A stretch of 64,000 nt of DNA, from the NCBI GenBank assembly GCA_951406725.2, contig OX597831.1:75144001-75208000 (forward strand), read 5' to 3'. This document shows, piece by piece, positions 4,064 to 58,298 of this stretch. The notes under the pieces are model-generated. The model was not told the DNA's origin, did not search any database, and was given only the letters and a program-made list of their open reading frames with translations. The stretch comes from Octopus vulgaris (lineage: Eukaryota). Positions within the stretch are counted from its first letter, which is position 1; each line of letters begins with the position of its first letter. The translations under genes and the position numbers were made by a program.

Positions 4064-7009
4064 TAGTGACTTTAGGATCAGAGTGACTTTAGGATCAGGA
4101 CTAGGAGGACAACCAGAAGACGACAAATATGGAGAAGAAGGATCTGGAAGCTTAAAGATCCTGCAAATGGACAGAGATTTAGGGACATATTACTTGAAGC
4201 CTCTGACGAAGTAGAAGGGGATAGAGCATCACAGGGGGTAGAAGACAGCTGGACGTTTCTAAGGGACAACCTGCTGAGAGCCACTGACCAGATCTGTGGC
4301 TGGTGCAAAGTCCCCTCTCGACCTAGAATAACGTGGTGGTGGAACAATATTGTAGACAGGGCTATTAGAGAAAAGAGACAGGCTTGGAAGGTCTGGAAAA
4401 ATGGGGGTAGCAGGGGATTGTATCAGACTGCCAAAAGAGAAGCTAGGAGACAGGTTTATTTAGCCAGAGGGGAAGCAGATAAGAAAAAATTTGCCAATGT
4501 TCTGCGCCGTGAGGACCAAAGACTGGAGGTGTTTCGTGTTGCAAGACAGTGTGTGAGAGAGAATCGTGATGTGGTAGGAGAGAAGTGTGTTCGCATGGAA
4601 GATGGTTCACTTGCGCTAAATGAGGATGCAAAGAGAGAGGTTTGGAGATGCCACTATGAAAGGTTGCTGAATGAAGAAAATGAATGGGATAAAGAGAGTC
4701 TGCCGAATGTTGACCCAACAGAGGGACCAGCTATCCGAGTTGATAGTTCCGTGGTAGCTAAGGCAATTAGAAGCATGAAGACAGGGAAAGCCCCAGGCCC
4801 ATCAGGAATCACTGCAGAGATGCTCAAAATGTCTGGTAGTGTCGGCTATAGCCTAGTCACCCGTATAGTTAATCAGGTGATACACAAAGGGGTCATACCC
4901 AATGACTGGTGTAGCAGTATAATAGTCAACTGCTACAAAGGTAAAGGTGATGCCCTAGATACAAATAACTACAGAGGTATCAAGCTGTTGGACCAGGTGA
5001 TGAAGGTTACGGAGAGGGTCATAGCCCAACTAATTAGAGAGAGAGTTAGTTTAGATGAGATGCAGTTTGGGTTTGTGCCAGGGAAAAGTACTACTGATGC
5101 TATATTCCTGGTAAGGCAGCTGCAGGAGAAATACCTAGCCAAAGATAAGCCCCTGTACCTGGCTTTTGTTGACATGGAGAAAGCCTTCGACAGGGTCCCC
5201 CGATCCCTTATCTGGTGGGCAATGAGGAAACTAGGGATAGATGAATGGTTAGTGAGCGCTGTGCGGGCCATGTATAGGGACGCCGCTAGTAGGGTGAGGG
5301 TTGGAAATGTGTACAGTGAAGAATTCCGGGTAGAGGTAGGAGTCCACCAAGGCTCAGTACTCAGCCCCCTCCTATTTATCATAGTCCTCCAGGCAATAAC
5401 GGAGGAATTCAAGACAGGATGCCCTTGGGAGCTCCTCTATGCTGATGACCTTGCTCTAATTGCTGAGTCGCTATCAGAACTGGAGGAGAAGTTTCAGGTG
5501 TGGAAACAAGGATTAGAATCGAAGGGCCTCAGAGTCAATCTAGCTAAAACCAAAGTCGTAATCAGTAGGAAGGTAGACAAATCACAAACACCTTCAGGTA
5601 GATGGCCCTGCTCGATCTGTAGAAAAGGTGTAGGTAGAAACTCTATAAGATGCACCAAGTGTAAGCTATGGACACATAAGAGATGCAGCAATGTCAAAGG
5701 AAGGCTAACTAGGAAGATGGTTTTTGTATGTGGCAGATGCTCAGGAACAATAAACACTGAAAATGCTCTGAGACCAACTTCCGTCACTTTCCAGGGAGAA
5801 AAACTAGAAATAGTTGATAGTTTCCGTTACCTAGGTGACCAAGTCAGCAGCGGGGGCGGGTGTGCTGAAAGTGTAACTGCTAGAGTAAGAATAGCTTGGG
5901 CAAAGTTCAGAGAGCTCTTACCTTTGCTGGTGACAAAAGGCCTCTCGCACAGAGTGAAAGGCAGACTGTATGATGCGTGTGTACGAACAGCCATGCTACA
6001 TGGCAGTGAAACATGGGCCGTGACTGCTGAGGATATGCGTAAGCTCGCTAGAAATGAAGCCAGTATGCTCCGATGGATGTGTAATGCCGGTACTCACACT
6101 CGGCAGAGTGTAAGTACCTTGAGAGAAAAGCTGGACCTAAGAAGCATCAGTTGTGGTGTGCAAGAGAGACGTTTGCGCTGGTATGGTCATGTGGCGAGAA
6201 TGGATGAAGATAGTTGTGTGAAAAAGTGCCACACCCTAGCAGTTGAGGGAACCTGTGGAAGAGGCAGACCCAGGAAAACCTGGGACGAGGTGGTGAAGCA
6301 CGACCTTCGAACTTTAGGTCTCACTGAGGAAATGACTAGAGACCGAGACCTCTGGAAGTGTGCTGTGCGCGAGAAGACCCAGCAGGACAAGTGAGTCCAT
6401 AACCCGTGGCCTTCTACATGGGATGGAGCCAGCCTACGTATGCATACCTTCCCTTCTTGGGACACAAAACTCTACTTGTGAAGACGTGTTGAGGCAAGTG
6501 AGGATCAGAATCGAAATCTATCAATGGAAATTGCGGATGTGCTACCAGTGCCGGTGGCATGTCAAAACTCTGCTTGTGAAGACCCGTTGAGGCAAGTGAG
6601 GATCAGAATCGAAATCGATCAATGAAAATCGATCAATGGAAATTGCAGATGTGTTACCAGTGCCGGTGGCATGTAAGAGAACTTTCCGTTTCACGACCGT
6701 TGCAAGCACCGCCCCGTTTCGTGTCCGTTGCCAGCCTCGCCTGGCCCTCGTGCCGGTGGCACATAAAAAGCACCATCCGTTCGTGGCCGTTTGCCAGCTC
6801 TGTCTGGCACCAGTGCGGGTGGCACGTAAAAAGCACCCACTAAACACACGGAGTGGTTGGCGTTAGGAAGGGCATCCAGCCGTAGAAACACTGCCAGATT
6901 TGACTGGGCCTGATGAAGCCTTCTGGCTTCACAGACCCCAGTAGAACCGTCCAACCCATGCTAGCATGGAAAACGGACGCTAAACGATGATGATGATGAT
7001 GATGATGAT
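4064..7009 (+). mobile_element. RTE-clade LINE, 5'-truncated, with repetitive 3' UTR and (GAT)n tail
   Basis: Open frame from ~4082 to 6394 with RT motifs (KAPGPSG, NYRGIKLL, QFGF, FVDMEKAFD, GVHQGSVLSP, LLYADD, FRYLG) and an RTE-type C-terminus (RLRWYGHV, RGRPRKTW); most of the APE domain is missing; 5' junction has a 17-bp tandem duplication. Confidence 0.95.
4418..6394 (+). CDS. RTE reverse transcriptase ORF (uninterrupted) with an embedded PHD-type zinc finger
   Basis: 658-aa ORF in the track; YADD motif; C4HC3 pattern CSIC..CTKC..H..C..CGRC at 5609-5740. Confidence 0.93.
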   Translation: MYQTAKREARRQVYLARGEADKKKFANVLRREDQRLEVFRVARQCVRENRDVVGEKCVRMEDGSLALNEDAKREVWRCHYERLLNEENEWDKESLPNVDPTEGPAIRVDSSVVAKAIRSMKTGKAPGPSGITAEMLKMSGSVGYSLVTRIVNQVIHKGVIPNDWCSSIIVNCYKGKGDALDTNNYRGIKLLDQVMKVTERVIAQLIRERVSLDEMQFGFVPGKSTTDAIFLVRQLQEKYLAKDKPLYLAFVDMEKAFDRVPRSLIWWAMRKLGIDEWLVSAVRAMYRDAASRVRVGNVYSEEFRVEVGVHQGSVLSPLLFIIVLQAITEEFKTGCPWELLYADDLALIAESLSELEEKFQVWKQGLESKGLRVNLAKTKVVISRKVDKSQTPSGRWPCSICRKGVGRNSIRCTKCKLWTHKRCSNVKGRLTRKMVFVCGRCSGTINTENALRPTSVTFQGEKLEIVDSFRYLGDQVSSGGGCAESVTARVRIAWAKFRELLPLLVTKGLSHRVKGRLYDACVRTAMLHGSETWAVTAEDMRKLARNEASMLRWMCNAGTHTRQSVSTLREKLDLRSISCGVQERRLRWYGHVARMDEDSCVKKCHTLAVEGTCGRGRPRKTWDEVVKHDLRTLGLTEEMTRDRDLWKCAVREKTQQDK

Positions 7010-38319: not shown

Positions 38320-38705
38320 CTTTGTAGTAAAGATTGTTTGCCAACATAACATGGCAGTCCTGGTTTAGGACGAATGTTACTGTAATTTAGCCCCAGGAGA
38401 CATCGTCTCCAGTTGGCTATATGACACGACCTGTGTCCTTATATTTTCAAACAAGGCAATCTAGTACCCCACCCAGCTCAAAACAATTATTCTGTGCTGA
38501 TGAAGGGAAATAACCCAGAAATCGTGATACACAGATATTGTTTTGAGCTGAGTGAGGGTGCTAGATTCCCTTGTTCAAAAATGTAAAGACACAGATTGTG
38601 TCGTATAGCCAACTGGAGACGATGTCTCCTGAGGCTAAATTACAGCAACAATAGTCCTAAACCAGGACTGCCATGTTATGTTGGCAAACAATCTTTACTA
38701 TAAAG
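38320..38705. repeat. Fold-back element with ~170-bp arms and a hammerhead core at the apex
   Basis: Arms 38320-38487 / 38537-38705 are reverse complements with scattered mismatches. Confidence 0.9.
38491..38535 (+). ncRNA. Type-I hammerhead-like ribozyme whose stem I continues as the long hairpin
   Basis: TCTGTG-CTGATGA-AGGG(AAATAA)CCCA-GAAATCGTGATA-CACAGA; A.A mismatch at the base of stem II. Confidence 0.6.
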
Positions 38706-40550: not shown

Positions 40551-40715
40551 GCTACAATGATGAGTGTTTCAGTTGATTCAATCAACAGAACAGTCTACTC
40601 ATGAAGGTAACATAGTTCTCAGGTAATTACACCAAATATAACGAGGCTGACCCATTGAAATACAGGTGCTCTTTATTTTTGCCAGCTGAGTGAAATGGAG
40701 CAACATAAAATAAGG

Positions 40716-40866
40716 TACATTATTTACATTATTTACATTTGACAGATATTTGTCCTCATCTTGTTTGTTGTTAACACAACGTTTCGGCTGATATACCCTC
40801 CAGCCTTCATCAGGTGTCTTGGGCAAATTTCGAAATCCGAATTCTCATTCCTAAGGTATTTTTCGA

Positions 40867-40900
<34 letters not shown>

Positions 40901-41260
40901 ATTATTATTATTCATGTCACTGCCTGGAATCGAACTCAGAATCTTGGGGTTAGTAGCCCATGCTCTTAATCACTACGCCATATGCCCATGGGCATATGGC
41001 GTAGTGATTAAGAGCATGGGCTACTAACCCCAAGATTCCAAGTTCAATTCCAGGCAGTGACATGAATAATAATAATAATATCAAAAAATACCTTAGGAAT
41101 GAGAACCCAGATTCGAAATTTCCCCAAGACACCTGATGAAGGCTGGAGGGTATATCAGCTGAAATGTTGTGTTAACAACAAACAAGATGAGGACAAATAT
41201 CCATCAAATGTAAATTATGTAAATAATTTACATAATTCCTCGTCTTTTAAATATAAAACT
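40716..41260. mobile_element. Head-to-head palindromic dimer of a tRNA-headed, hammerhead-bearing SINE, inserted in another SINE
   Basis: Loop-less centre TATGCCCA|TGGGCATA at 40988/40989; 11-bp TSD ATAAAATAAGG (40705-40715, 41261-41271); the host SINE resumes after the TSD. Confidence 0.85.
40773..40818 (-). ncRNA. Minimal type-I hammerhead ribozyme (partner copy on + at 41128-41173)
   Basis: Minus strand: GACAC-CTGATGA-A-GGCTG(10 nt)CAGCC-GAAACGTT-GTGTT; palindromic stem III ACGU. Confidence 0.7.
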
Positions 41261-41728
41261 ATAAAATAAGGCGCCTTGCTCAAGGACATAAACTGCCGGG
41301 GATTGAAATCCTGACCTTACAATCATGAGCCGAATACACTAACCACTAAGGCATGTGCCTTCACATATTCTTTATAAATGTATATATAATACATGGGTAT
41401 TTTAAAGGTCATTTTTGTGGGATGACGTCAGCAGCTGGGGAGCTGACCGGAACTTGGGGCTGACCGGAAGGGGCAGGAGGGACACGCGTGCAGGTAGGGC
41501 AGGATTCTGCCTTTTCAATCGAGGTCACCGAGCGAGTAAGACGGGACAGCATGTTCTTAAGGTAAGGGCGAAGCAGCTGCTATTTCTAGTGTTCGGGTTG
41601 GGCTGTGTTGAAGGATCCATTACTGCTGAAGGGTCTCCATCTGAGCGAAGAGAAGGTAGGTGCCTTTATTTCGAATCTCTCGCATACACCACAAGCTATT
41701 TCGGCTCTCCATATAAGACGTCACCACG

Positions 41729-42490
41729 ATGGCAGCGAAAATTAGGATCGCCAGCAACATTATCAGACCCTTTAATGGTGAAGGCGATGTAGTAGCCTGG
41801 ATTCGTAAAATCAGGCTGGTGGCAAGACTGCAAGGTATAAGCGATGTGGCAAGTCTTATGGCGCTGTATTTGGAAGGGAGTGCGTTGATGCTATACCTTG
41901 AGATGGACGAGGAAGAACGTCTGAGCGAGGAAAAGATAGAGCAACGTCTGCGGGATGCTTACACCGAGTGTGAGTATACAGCTTTTGCTAAGCTGGGTAC
42001 GATTAGATGGACGGGAGGACAGGTGGACGAATACGCGGCAGAAGTTCGAAGGTTAGCAACGCTGGCTGGGTTTACAGAAGGGCTGGAGAGAGCAGCGCGA
42101 CTGGCATTCGTAAATGGGTTCCCCGACGATGTAGGGATTCACCTACAAAAATTGCCTGGGAATAAAAAGATGGTGCTGAGCGAACTTGTGACTCAAGCCC
42201 GCGTGTTGACGCGACACGCTGGGCGGAAGGCGACAGCGATGGCAGTGACGGAGGTGCGTAAAGATGGCCGACGGCTGGAGAAAGACGTTCAGAAGCCTGC
42301 CGTGCAACGACGGCGGCCATTCTCAGGTCGGTGTTTTAGATGTCAGGGGTCGCACATGGCGAGGGAGTGTACACTACCGGGACCCGTTTCCTATCGATGC
42401 AGGCAGGCAGGGCACATCGCCCGTGATTGCGACCAGGGTAACGACCGTGGGGAAGTTGCTGCATCTCAAACTTTCCCTGCAAACGATTAG
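41729..42490 (+). CDS. gag: Retrotransposon Gag with CCHC zinc knuckles
   Basis: 253-aa ORF; PFNGEGDVVAW N-terminus; CFRCQGSHMAREC and a degenerate YRCRQAGHIARDC. Confidence 0.85.
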   Translation: MAAKIRIASNIIRPFNGEGDVVAWIRKIRLVARLQGISDVASLMALYLEGSALMLYLEMDEEERLSEEKIEQRLRDAYTECEYTAFAKLGTIRWTGGQVDEYAAEVRRLATLAGFTEGLERAARLAFVNGFPDDVGIHLQKLPGNKKMVLSELVTQARVLTRHAGRKATAMAVTEVRKDGRRLEKDVQKPAVQRRRPFSGRCFRCQGSHMARECTLPGPVSYRCRQAGHIARDCDQGNDRGEVAASQTFPAND

Positions 42491-42498
42491 AGGCGATT

Positions 42499-43050
42499 TT
42501 GGAGAAGCTGCCATTAATTGATGTCGAGGCCGAGGGGAAGACGTTCGAGGCCCTCGTAGATACGGGCTGCACGACGACACTTGTGACTTCAAGGGTGATG
42601 AAGAAATGGAATGGGGCAAGTAGCGTCCGGGTGGTCGACGGCAGCAAAATCCATTGCAAAGGCAGCAGCAAGGTAGAGATAGTGGTGCGAGGCACAACGC
42701 TAAGGCTGCAGGTAATTGTGGCTGAATGCGTGGTGATGGGGATGGACGCCATCAACCACCTCAGTGGCGTCAGTATTGTGGGAGATGAGGTCACATTCGG
42801 AAGTGTGGGGGCGTCGTGCTCTGCAAGTCAGGATCGCCAGAGAGAGCAGAGCCCCGCGAAGGACTGCGCTGCTTACACCATCGAGGACAAAGACTTTCAG
42901 GCGGCGTTCGATGGTCAGCGGTGGACGATAGAGTGGCGATGGAAGGACAAGTCCCCGAAGCTGAAAAACAGAGTGAGCTGCTACCAGCATACCCTGAAAG
43001 GCCACGCCAGGGTCGTGTTTGAAGACGAGGTGGAGACGTTTCAGCAGTAA
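42499..43050 (+). pseudogene. Retroviral-type aspartic protease and start of pol, truncated
   Basis: ALVDTGC active site and VMGMD; in the -1 frame to gag; ends at the inversion junction. Confidence 0.85.
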
Positions 43051-43587: not shown

Positions 43588-43865
43588 ATATTTTGTTGTG
43601 TCTGAAGAAGGTAATTCTGTTTAAATACCTTATTGATTAACACACTCACCAGCTTGATTTCCACTCATTTACTTATTTATTTTTTGGTTTATCATCTCAA
43701 ACATAAAGAACGCAGCTCCAATAATGGGCAGAGTCAACAACTATCGAAGAAGCTGCAAGAAGCAATGAAAATTTTAGAAAAATAATAAATGAGTGGAAAT
43801 TGAACCAGTGAGTGTGTTAATAAGATATTAAAACAGAATGACCCTCCCTAGACACAACAAAATAT
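43588..43865. repeat. Old inverted repeat (~90-bp arms) with a decayed hammerhead-like remnant
   Basis: 43588-43681 vs 43778-43865; GTGT-CTGAAGA-AGGTA..TACCT but no GAAA. Confidence 0.6.
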
Positions 43866-46167: not shown

Positions 46168-48923
46168 CTGTGAGGAATTAAGACAACAGAAAGAATATCA
46201 GAAATAAATAAAAGTTGACTTTTAAAAGTGAAATTCACCTACAAAGAAAGGATTTTTTTTGGTTGCTGTCACAGATTTGGAAATTTTAAAATTAAGTGAA
46301 AAATTTTCAAATTTGGTATGTTGATGGAATTTTTCACACTGAACCTGAATTTGGGATTTGTTTATTCCAGAAAAAGATTCAGAAATACATTACAGAGCTT
46401 CAAGTCTGATCATTTTTAACCAATCAGAAAGCAAGGAATCAAAAGCTGGCATGTACAGCATCCTTGTTACAATGAAAACAGGGCAGATAACAGCTTCGAT
46501 CGTTACTATGGAAACAGACACCAATGTGAGATTTACAGTCGTGAATAATGGTAGCTTTTGGTTGGCTAAAATTACCCCAAATTTGAAAACTTTAAAAGCT
46601 ATTAAATTTTTTTATTTATAAACTCATGGCAAAAATGAATTTCGTTTTCATAATTAGCATACAAGACTAAATCAGTATAACCCAATTAAAAAAGCATTGG
46701 AACGAAATTGGGGAAAAAAACTGAATCTTACAGCAACCAAAGAGATTCAACAAATCATACAACACAACCAGGTGAGTTCCCAAAACCCTTATTTTCCCAA
46801 ACCTGTTCATAGTCTCAGATCATGAGATTAGATATGAAAGCAAAATCACTAGACATGGCAAAACTGTCTTCTTTCACTCTTTCCTCCTCGCTTCCTCTGT
46901 CATCTCTCTCTCTCTCCCCTACTAATCCTTTTGGTTACACTGCATCAAAGACAAAAAATAGTTGAGAAGACCCTTTAGTCTTGTGAGGTACATGGTAAGC
47001 TCTTTAGTACTGATTCCGTAATGAAAAACTCCCAATTATCCAAAATGCCATGCAAATTATCGCAGAAGAACAATCTTTACAATGGAATCTGCCAAGAGCC
47101 ACACTTGACCAAAAGTTATAACAGCTGGTTAACAAAATAATAATAATTCTTTCTACTAAAGGCACAAGGCCAGCAATTTTGAGGGGAGGGTTTTGTTGAC
47201 CCCCAGATTTTGTTAAATACTTTATTTTATTGACCCTCTATTTTTTCTTTTTTTTTTGTTGTTGTAGGGAAAGTAGAAGTAATTAACTAAAGTAGAATTA
47301 ATTAACTAAACTACAGTAATTGACTGGTATTTTAAGACCCTATCTTCAGAAAAATGACAATCGAAATCAAGGGACTTGAATTAATAACCATGTTGAATAT
47401 GTTGAAGTTCAGTTCATAAAATATTTTCTTGTGAAGAAACAGCAATTTTTGTTTATTCTTCAAATGCAAACAGCAACAACATTTTCAATTAATAATATCA
47501 AATTTATATCATTTTGGTAGCAATAGAAAATATTTTCATTATAATTTTAATGTCCACTCATCCATGCTTCCAATGGATCCGACAGAATTCACTGAGGCAG
47601 ATTTTCAATAGTTGGATGCCCTCCCTGTCACCAACCTTCAACTGCTTCCAAGTAAGGTAATACATCCCCATAATCAGACAGGATTATATGGAAGATTGGA
47701 AACAAACACTACTGATGCACGTCTACAGCTATCAGGCAATGCGAAGACAGGAGGAACACACACACACACACAAGATGGGTTTCTCAGCTTCCATCAACCA
47801 AATTCACTCACAAAGCTTTGGTTGGTCCAGCGCTATAGAAGACACTTGTCCAAGGGACCACACAGTGGGATTGACCCCAGAACCACGTGGTTAGGAGGCT
47901 GACTTGTTAACCACCCAACATCTTCATGGCATAAAAAATTAGAAAATGATTAAAGGGATACTCTTTACTCTTTTTTACTTGTTTCAGTCATTTGACTGCA
48001 GCCATGCTGGAGCACCGCCTTTCAGTCGAGTAACTCGACCCCGGGACTTATTCTTTTTGTAAGCCCAGTACTTATTCTATCGGTCTCTTTTTGCCAAACC
48101 GCTAAGTGACGGGGACATAAACACACCAGCATCGGTTGTCAAGCAATGCTAGGGGAACAAACACACACACACAAACACACATACATACATACATATATAT
48201 ATATATATACATATATACGACAGGCTTCTTTCAGTTTCCGTCTACCAAATCCACTCACAAGGCATTGGTCGGCCCGGGGCTATAGCAGAAGACACTTGCC
48301 CAAGGTGCCACAGGAAATTTTTTTAAATACAATTTAAATCTTTAGAAAATCCAAACTAATCCGAGTGATTTTAACTTAGTGTTAGGATTATTTTGTTAGG
48401 CACAAATATGATTGATGAAATCAGGTAAACAATAAATTTCTTCGGTGCCAATGTACGAGATTCTTAGCCCTTGAGTCACTCTGTAAGTTTTGCTGATTGT
48501 TAATAACACACACACACACACACACACGTTTTGATTTCTATTTTGTTTGCATCACCAAACCTTTTCATTTTTTACCCCCTTAAATTTTCAACTTAGGTTT
48601 TCTTTTTTAAATTTCCCATGAGAAGTTCGTCAATAATTTTTTGCCTGTGTATGCGAAATGTGTCAATAAAATCTGTGGTTTAATCTCCAGAGCACCGCGA
48701 AGTCGAAAACATTGACAACTGTAAATTCTTCAACCAAATTATTTTATTAATTCGATGTTGTTTAAGACTATCAGTGCCAGAGTTATTCCCCTTAGATCAA
48801 CAATCCAAGTCGCAGCTCAGTTATCCAACTTTGAAATTGTTCAGAGTGAATGAATTTTTATTTCAATTACGTCGGCCGAAAATACAGCTTAAAGTTGCTG
48901 GGAAACTGAAATATCAATTACAG

Positions 48924-49017
48924 TGAAATAATTGTATACAGTGCTCAAGTGCACCACAACTTTATACGCATTTTTGACAAGTTGTGGTGCACCTAAGCAC
49001 TGTATACAATAATTTCA
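48924..49017. repeat. Short hairpin, MITE-like palindrome
   Basis: TGAAATAATTGTATACAGTGCTCAAGTGCACCACAACT / AGTTGTGGTGCACCTAAGCACTGTATACAATAATTTCA. Confidence 0.75.
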
Positions 49018-49049
49018 TTATTATTATTCAATATATATATATATATATA

Positions 49050-51202: not shown

Positions 51203-51613
51203 GAAAATAGGAAATCCGTTGGAAAAACAAAAACAGAACAGAGGCGGAGCAAAAACAAATCGAACTATGCTCCTAAGAGCATATTAACCTTTGATTAATC
51301 TACTACAAGATTATTCATCTTTCTATTTCACATATATATATATATATATATATATATTATACTTACAAATTGAGATAGGGGTTGTAAATGCAACCCTCTA
51401 TGGGATAACGTATATCCAATATACTGCTAGTGAAGTACCCAACAAAGTTAATACATAAATGTTAATGATTGCGATGCAATCATATATATATATATACATA
51501 CATACACACCAGAGTAAAGCACATAAATGTGAAACAAAGTGGAAAAAAGAGTACTCAAATGCCAGAGGTAGAGTAATATGCTTTATTTAAAAGCAGCAGA
51601 AATATAACAAAAG

Positions 51614-51651
51614 CTGTTACTCAGAGTTTCACGTTCCCATTCGTCAGACAG
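51614..51651 (-). ncRNA. Minimal type-I hammerhead ribozyme in element 51508-51722, with an inverted partial copy at 51659-51722
   Basis: Minus strand: CTGT-CTGACGA-ATG(GGAA)CGT-GAAACTCTGAGTA-ACAG. Confidence 0.7.
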
Positions 51652-52116
51652 TTTTGTTTGTCCGACAAATGGGAAACTCTGAGTAACAGCTTTTGTTATA
51701 TTTCTGCTGCTGTTAAATAAAGTCTCTATATATCACCATCATCCTCATTATTTAACGTCTGGCATGGGTTGGACGGCTTGACCAAGGCTGGCAGGCTGGA
51801 AGTCTGCACCAGACTCCAGTTTGATTTGGCATCGTTTCTACGTCTTGATGCCCTTCCAAATGCCCACCATTCCGAGAGTGCAATGTGTGGTTTTACGTGC
51901 CACTGGCACAGGTGCCAGTTATGTGACACCATTATCTGCCACAACTACGATTACACTTGACTTCTACTCAAGCACAGCATATTGCCAAAGGTGTCGGTCA
52001 CTTGTCATTGCCTCTGTGGGGCCCAACACTCGAAAGGAGCCTTTCCACATGCCACTGCTGGCATCAGTGACTTTTTACATACCAGTTACATGACACCAGC
52101 ATCAGCCACAACTATA

Positions 52117-57910: not shown

Positions 57911-58289
57911 GATAAAATATTACGAATGCTATTTTTGAGAATGGCGAAGGAGCCACAGAAAATCCATTTCTAAGTAAGTTTGTTCTTAATATTAATAATG
58001 ATGCGCACTCTTAACCTTTCTGTCCCCCTCCCTTTCTCAGCCTTCCTTCTTTCTGGTTTCCTTTTCTTCTACCTTACTGTCTCTCCCTCTCTCTCATTCT
58101 TCATTCTTTCTGGTTTTCTCTACAACCATTCCCTTTTTTTTCTCTTCCCTTCCCTTTCTCTTACTTCTCCTCCCCTGTCCCGTCGCTGGTCAGCGATGAG
58201 GAAACTACTGTCTTTTCTGACCTTGCTTCACTCGAGTGTAGACAGCATTTTCTGTGGCTCCTTCACCATTCTCAAAAATAGCGTTCGTA

Positions 58290-58298
<9 letters not shown>
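57911..58298. repeat. Element with ~52-bp terminal inverted repeats and a pyrimidine-rich interior, ending in (TA)n
   Basis: 57911-57963 is the reverse complement of 58247-58298 with 2 mismatches. Confidence 0.7.

Follow-up and report, generated by a model that had tools for sequence, protein, structure and literature searches.

Results

A two-armed insertion splits a SINE-type repeat

The window, that is, the whole 64,000-nucleotide stretch of Octopus vulgaris DNA analysed here (assembly GCA_951406725.2, contig OX597831.1, positions 75,144,001 to 75,208,000 of the forward strand), contains a tRNA-headed SINE-type host repeat (40651..41362, minus strand) that is split into two pieces (~40651-40715 and 41272-41362) by an insertion at 40716..41260. 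The insert is bordered on both sides by the 11-bp direct repeat ATAAAATAAGG (40705..40715 and 41261..41271, plus strand). Taking out the insert and one copy of this target-site duplication (TSD) restores a host repeat that runs uninterrupted through its alignments to 15 matches among the sampled loci, which bears out the proposal of an earlier sequence-only reading that the insert entered as one unit.

The insert consists of two head-to-head arms, a tail-less left arm on the minus strand (40716..40988) and a tailed right arm on the plus strand (40989..41260), as delimited by aligning one to the other. They meet at 40988/40989, as had also been noted, in the centre of an exact palindrome of 100 bp (50+50 bp, 40939..41038). 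The arms agree at 228 of 242 aligned columns and differ at the remaining 14, as well as by a 1-nt indel and by 30 nt in the length of an (AAT)n spacer (41064..41081, plus strand, with its left counterpart at ~40866-40912), a tract that varies between arms and between copies. The equivalence of the two arms assumed at first does not hold, since a ~29-nt extension (41232..41260, plus strand) is present only on the right; by alignment, it is a one-sided tail of the type that the available text of PMC8557442 and PMC11167929 describes for Penelope-like elements (PLEs). Similarly, the motif GTTCGATTCC, which had been ascribed to each arm, is intact in the left arm only and reads GTTCAATTCC in the right one.

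Each arm begins at the centre with a tRNA-like head, with an A box at +8 and a B box at ~+53. In the right head (40990..41058, plus strand), a putative Pol III promoter and RNA 5' end, the A box lies at 40997-41007 and the B box, with one CpG-type change, at 41042-41051; the left head (40919..40987, minus strand) has an A box and an intact B box (40926-40935). A profile of 83 heads found its best matches outside the family in a tRNA-like repeat head (E 2.5e-4) and in a gene for tRNA-Arg(TCG) (E 0.006); it also retrieved the heads of the genome's SINE-type repeats. Of the 29 distinct tRNAs that were sampled, tRNA-Arg scored highest as candidate parent. No tRNA was called in the window by Rfam, nor by ARAGORN run at its default threshold, so the term tRNA-like refers to the boxes and to the profile similarity, which together uphold the tRNA-related origin first proposed for the head. 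With its threshold lowered, ARAGORN made calls in 6 of 7 heads; because 7 control loci then yielded 13 spurious genes, these calls were discarded. No free SINE carrying an identical head was found in 664 kb.

Further out, the left arm carries a minimal type-I hammerhead (40773..40818, minus strand) that matches the structural descriptor, with an intact core, a bulged A after the core and a palindromic AACGTT stem III of the dimer type, features that also appear in the available text of PMC4209133. Its right-arm counterpart (41128..41173, plus strand, predicted cut after 41168) has two C-to-T changes at CpG sites and fails the descriptor. The earlier identification of the motif as a hammerhead was right. 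The descriptor gave 3 matches in a 600-kb genomic sample and none in shuffles, and Rfam called no hammerhead in the window. The core is intact in 73 of 130 arms, while 27 of the 130 agree with the strict criteria in full, and its conservation (0.948) shows no excess over the flanks (0.942). The element continues ~90 nt beyond the ribozyme cut and insertions end 60-90 nt past it, so that self-cleavage does not set the element's end, contrary to an earlier proposal that it sets an RNA 3' end near 41168. Another minimal hammerhead with a different stem II was seen at L101 (5077-5113, minus strand) and likely belongs to a separate PLE family.

The arm is linked to both ends of a PLE reading frame

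Copies that extend upstream of the unit contain RT motifs, then the end of an ORF for a GIY-YIG-type endonuclease, then the head. The end of this ORF is followed by ~15 nt and the head in 28 of the 30 loci that have sequence upstream of the head. The RT part matched Pfam RVT_1 (E 1.6e-5, below the curated cut-off) and, weakly, telomerase RTs in PDB. Pfam GIY-YIG had no match in the linked ORF. The ORF ends in VYSIPCSC..Y.GET..H..H, which we take to be the GIY-YIG/CCHH pattern of PLEs, and a relative at 43% identity is named GIY-YIG endonuclease by its source; the endonuclease assignment thus draws on such motifs and on the name of this relative. Among named proteins, the nearest relative of the linked ORF comes from an octopus (69%), and other relatives are at 60-65%.

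On the other side of the unit, the tail lies directly upstream of the 5' part of the ORF in 14 of 18 loci (the 18 best of 40 scored, self excluded), and ORF end, terminal repeat (pLTR) and ORF start follow each other in tandem in three of these 18 (L225, L229, L233). In the right arm, codons 1-54 of the PLE ORF (41099..41260, plus strand, with the ATG at 41099) are open through the hammerhead and the tail, and this frame continues into the PLE N-terminus in L033 and L161. L232 begins at tRNA +1. The PLE is ~2.6-2.9 kb long, and among the loci examined only broken copies and no intact full-length ORF were found.

Because both the ORF end and the ORF start are linked to the unit, we conclude, with near certainty, that the arm is the pLTR of a PLE from the same genome, and not, as first suggested, a stand-alone SINE resembling SM-alpha. 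To regard the ORF-linked copies as chance nested insertions is untenable given the fixed spacing in dozens of loci. A dimer-specific subfamily was not found either, in that no diagnostic columns separate the dimers from the ORF-linked copies.

The family has the features of an EN+ PLE: a single ORF with RT and C-terminal GIY-YIG, a pLTR in partial tandem that contains the ORF start, an inverted 5'-truncated copy with a one-sided tail, and a minimal hammerhead. Its domain order and linker, read by eye, are compatible with the Penelope/Poseidon clade as delimited in the available text of PMC8557442 (C-terminal EN, no extra Zn-finger-like linker motif). The tRNA-related head with A and B boxes is a SINE2 feature. 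SINE2 elements are also independent non-autonomous units that share only their 3' end with a partner, and here the whole unit, head included, lies within a coding PLE. SM-alpha and non-LTR retrozymes are head-to-tail units delimited by ribozyme cleavage, whereas the arrangement here is head-to-head.

Two-armed copies recur across the genome

A 118-bp query spanning the junction gave 2,016 candidates; all 40 that were scored span the centre and lie at separate loci with their own flanks; the dimer with TSDs recurs genome-wide, in line with the earlier reading. Sixty evenly spaced 10-kb stretches (600 kb) contained 10 match clusters, read as 8 insertions, which scales to ~37,000 copies in the 2.8-Gb genome (Poisson range ~16,000-74,000). 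Four of these 8 insertions had two opposed arms, and no complete dimer with both heads was among the 8; when the 3' half was the sole basis of selection, 17 of 29 loci were two-armed and ~4-5 were near-complete dimers. Complete dimers being few in both samples, the complete loop-less form is a recurrent minority, and most copies are pLTR-only. Flank repeats of at least 10 bp (one mismatch allowed) were present at 31 of 39 single-tail loci, with a median of 12, vs 19 of 229 mismatched flank pairs. Divergence from the family majority is ~5% in the 3' part and ~8% in the head, much of it at CpG. Two loci 15.5 kb apart, L140 and L141 (G000:C6), are near-identical including their flanks and represent a local segmental duplication.

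The window contains further fold-back repeats (1189-1790, 38320-38705, 43588-43865, 48916-49025, 51581-51722 and 57912-58298), several of them flanked by (TA)n, which probably represent pairs of inverted pLTRs from other PLE families that lack a tRNA head. Hammerhead-core-like motifs were seen by eye in two (1189-1790 and 38320-38705), where the strict descriptor failed. A 772-codon open frame at 4076-6394 (plus strand) belongs to an RT-bearing LINE, presumably RTE-like by its motifs. Adjoining the host repeat, gag/protease-like frames of an LTR retrotransposon lie at 41717-43050 (plus strand), preceded by LTR-like sequence from ~41400.

Tails and spacers fit two separately primed cDNAs

Among 49 two-armed loci, the tail was present on one arm in 39, on both in 1 and on neither in 9, a last count that was set by a script threshold and includes some loci where a worn or displaced tail is seen by eye. 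In the 11 single-tail loci of the ORF-anchored sets, the long, ORF-bearing arm carried the tail in 6 and lacked it in 4, with 1 unscored. A tail on either the long or the short arm speaks against simple fold-back copying. Such a copy is never longer than its template, and single-tail loci with a tail-less long arm therefore require that both arms were copied from RNA. The plain fold-back cDNA initially envisaged fails on these 4 of 11 loci, where the longer arm is tail-less while the shorter arm is tailed.

The loop-less centre derives from a short palindrome that already exists in the parent. At tRNA +1, the parent PLE carries an imperfect inverted repeat, CCATA..TGCCC/GGGCATATGG, with a 2-nt AC spacer, and the family centre usually retains a 2-nt AC/GT spacer. 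The perfect AT centre of the window probably reflects CpG decay. Read toward the tailed arm, the dimer spacer was AC (the parent's direction) in 6 cases, GT (the opposite) in 4 and AT, probably again by CpG decay, in 5. Taken together, tails and spacers are better explained by two cDNAs primed separately than by self-priming.

A subfamily marker was common to both arms in 39 of 41 loci (reached in 0 of 20,000 permutations), so both arms come from the same or a sister template. Rare variants were common to both heads in 7 of 55 cases, vs 0.94 expected, and to both 3' parts in 5 of 149, vs 2.4, which suggests some conversion near the centre. A stem-loop is predicted in the RNA at 41184..41246 (plus strand; z -6.2 here, z -2.1 in L033): the tail-less end falls within its loop and the tailed end just past its stem, and the two arm end points may accordingly be RT start sites.

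Some loci depart from this scheme. L037, L048, L055, L057 and L079 form a second junction class, with GGTTA/TAACC-type microhomology at ~+17/+36 of the head, which marks either another site of annealing or a centre that was deleted later. In L053, L059 and L076, the ~9 nt upstream of +1 match the mirror arm of a dimer and not the 3' UTR of the parent, a hint that dimers are in turn used as templates. In L056 (382-1673) and L040 (1-1500), the (AAT)n tract of a copy is interrupted by a LINE 3'-end-like fragment, which we take to be of the R4/Dong type; in L056, both dimer arms flank it.

5' ends cluster at the tRNA-like head

Thirty-four arms reach the head, of which 30 stop inside it and 4 continue upstream. 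Of the 19 arms still at risk there, 15 end at -12..+6, a rate of ~0.04 per nt, and 22 of 31 arms end over 500 nt of ORF (~0.0025 per nt); the rate at the head is at least 15-fold higher, although the breakpoint samples were ranked by similarity to the query, which biases frequencies, and palindromic junctions blur positions by several bases. Positions +7..+36 hold 15 of the 34 junctions, which may be microhomology joins or later deletions. In L038, L043, L094 and L098, arms stop at +1..+5 against unrelated DNA and there is no mirror arm.

The sense strand has 32 runs of four or more T over 65 kb of aligned copies, and none is common to more than three copies over ~2.6 kb. The density of T4 runs (0.44-0.49 per kb) is below that of RTE-like (1.1) and other LINE segments (2.7), but this deficit is weak, with ~3 runs expected per 2.3 kb, P ~0.05 for the longest copy and a single lineage. 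A control labelled as another PLE proved to be the same family and was excluded from this comparison. Conservation of the A and B boxes does not exceed that of the bases next to them and, as the hammerhead core likewise shows no excess, the copies show no selection.

No pile-up of RNA starts or ends was detected, and strands were equal, in reads of a related species (~6% of two raw-read runs) and in the contigs of two runs, libraries of a kind that rarely show short Pol III RNA. At seven distant PLE loci in metagenome contigs (26-46% identity), neither an A box nor a B box was seen in the sequence that follows the match (up to 1.5 kb), and no such distant PLE loci were found in viral contigs. 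A Pol III role for the head is plausible, with indirect support from the clustering of 5' ends, and we lean somewhat towards an RNA that would be started at the head by Pol III.

Discussion

The initial observation is confirmed as a whole, and its interpretation is supported in part. We think it probable that the insert is an inverted pair of PLE pLTRs made by two-strand target-primed reverse transcription on an RNA that likely starts at the tRNA-like head and is probably made by Pol III; the participation of two separately primed cDNAs is, for its part, highly likely. Judging from the biochemistry of PAc (Poseidon of Anolis carolinensis; PMC11167929, available text), the element's RT/endonuclease would nick both strands of AT-rich target DNA with a stagger of ~11 bp. 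The template RNA would begin at the tRNA-like head; it could be the 5' end of the transcript of a full-length PLE, or else a short RNA transcribed from a dimer or pLTR copy. One strand would prime inside the RNA stem-loop and yield the tail-less arm, and the other would prime just past the stem-loop and yield the tailed arm. Both cDNAs would then extend ~240-270 nt to the RNA 5' end, where their 3' ends, self-complementary at TGCCC-NN-GGGCA, may anneal, and fill-in and repair would produce the nearly loop-less head-to-head junction. The hammerhead would simply ride along, the ends of the element not being defined by the ribozyme.

A less probable account, to which we still give appreciable weight, retains the PLE origin and treats the tRNA-like head as a passive relic. 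Long Pol II RNAs would serve as templates, and the breakpoint cluster would arise where RT stalls or snaps back, at the short palindrome and structure that the parent has near +1, through self-priming of the type proposed in the available text of PMC3846280. The imperfect repeat of the parent indeed sits exactly at the hotspot and could stop RT on a longer Pol II RNA, the same source describes other PLE pLTRs with 18-38-bp 5' palindromes and no tRNA heads, and both the boxes without extra conservation and the related-species reads without an RNA 5'-end signal are compatible with a relic. However, A and B boxes stand at tRNA-gene spacing exactly where 5' ends cluster, four loci have arms that end at +1..+5 against unrelated DNA, and the sense strand has no shared Pol III terminator-like T run. 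Moreover, a pure snap-back cannot tail the second arm when the first is tail-less.

It appears very unlikely that the insert is a stand-alone SINE resembling SM-alpha, with an RNA that is terminated by the ribozyme cut and a hairpin-primed cDNA that integrates. The combination of a tRNA-like head and a hammerhead does resemble the schistosome SINE-like repeats described in the available text of PMC6765202, and the excess of rare variants common to both arms near the centre is what fold-back or gene conversion gives. Yet the unit is the pLTR of an ORF-bearing PLE from which the dimers show no diagnostic differences, insertions end well past the cut site, and the tails and spacer orientations misfit a one-strand fold-back. 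We give hardly any credence to a MITE or a foldback DNA transposon, and as little to an artefact of assembly. A TSD and long inverted arms would suit the first two, but the asymmetric ends, variable 5' truncation and RT-linked arm would not, and the RT-linked copies refute the MITE reading outright; an artefact, though no long read spanned the locus, is at odds with 40 separate loci with their own flanks and with arms that differ in sequence and in (AAT)n length.

The reading as an inverted PLE pLTR pair is in keeping with what is known of EN+ PLEs, for which an inverted pLTR, a one-sided ~30-nt tail, a minimal hammerhead and a ~10-bp TSD are hallmarks in the available text of PMC3846280 and PMC8557442. 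Penelope/Poseidon-type elements (Adineta Pen2a/Pen2/Pen3a, PMC3846280; Drosophila virilis Penelope, PMC2377424; PMC8557442) share with the octopus family the head-to-head inverted pLTR, the optional one-sided tail of ~30 nt, an ORF start in the pLTR, a short 5' pLTR palindrome and partial tandems; in rotifer Penelopes, the tail is 31 bp, the TSDs are 8-10 bp, the ORF start again lies within the inverted pLTRs, and self-priming was proposed (PMC3846280). Their pLTR promoters, where described in these parts of the literature, are of Pol II type (TATA/Inr/DPE), as is that of Drosophila Penelope (PMC2377424), whereas here the start is a tRNA-type A/B box, most copies are pLTR-only and 5' ends cluster at pLTR +1. 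PAc, the sole PLE studied in vitro, shares a hammerhead that overlaps the beginning of the ORF, a stem-loop whose two RT start sites bracket the tail, and AT-rich targets; cutting and extension occur on both strands of the target, the RNA serves as substrate in its uncleaved form and insertion persists in ribozyme mutants (PMC11167929). The available text of that study mentions no tRNA-like head, and the joining of two cDNAs lies outside it.

The hammerhead itself has the type-I core, bulged base before stem II, palindromic stem III and opposite-strand pairing given for minimal PLE hammerheads in the available text of PMC4209133, where such pairs lie 100-700 bp apart. Animal non-LTR retrozymes, PLE derivatives according to the accessible part of a preprint (bioRxiv 10.64898/2026.07.22.740005), form head-to-tail tandem arrays, unlike the head-to-head pairs found here. 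The word 'tRNA' is absent from the main text of both sources, and the available text of the preprint, of PMC7229834 and of the octopus repeat annotation PMC13282606 mentions no such element. The TRIMp3 elements Cassandra, Helenus and Ajax (PMC10886601, available text) likewise have a Pol III-type promoter that comes from a small-RNA gene in a retroelement terminal repeat, but they are LTR elements of the non-autonomous kind, which have PBS/PPT and do not share a long LTR with a coding partner, whereas here the head is in the coding PLE's own repeat. In schistosome SM-alpha/Sj-alpha, a Pol III-type promoter is also followed by a hammerhead, but these are direct tandem repeats released by self-cleavage, for which the available text of PMC6765202 describes no inverted pair, PLE tail or linked RT ORF. 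Across the literature searched, we found no PLE with a tRNA-derived or Pol III pLTR; Repbase, Dfam, subscription journals and supplements, which lay outside this scope, may already catalogue the family.

A bolder and rather improbable extension is that a captured tRNA promoter, located in the upstream pLTR, would drive Pol III transcription of the coding PLE as a whole. Reverse transcription that starts internally, close to the RNA 5' end, would shed tens of thousands of SINE-like palindromes, each templating new ones, so that an autonomous Pol III retrotransposon would be its own SINE factory. The missing shared T4 terminator over ~2.6 kb and L232, which starts at tRNA +1 and reads into the ORF, are consistent with this idea.

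The two-armed architecture is a known PLE signature; what is new is the tRNA-headed pLTR, along with the large numbers of short palindromes that it produces. Annotation can easily mistake these palindromes for SINEs, MITEs or microRNA hairpins, and weak Rfam miRNA matches occur in the window. They are also a likely source of long double-stranded RNA in the host. The abundance of short two-armed insertions provides a genomic test of how the inverted ends and tails of PLEs form, which the available text of PMC8557442 calls still undefined. If the head is a working Pol III promoter, the family would be a Penelope counterpart of Cassandra and Helenus, with the promoter, unusually, in the coding element itself, and it would offer a route by which a SINE-like family may arise directly from a PLE terminal repeat.
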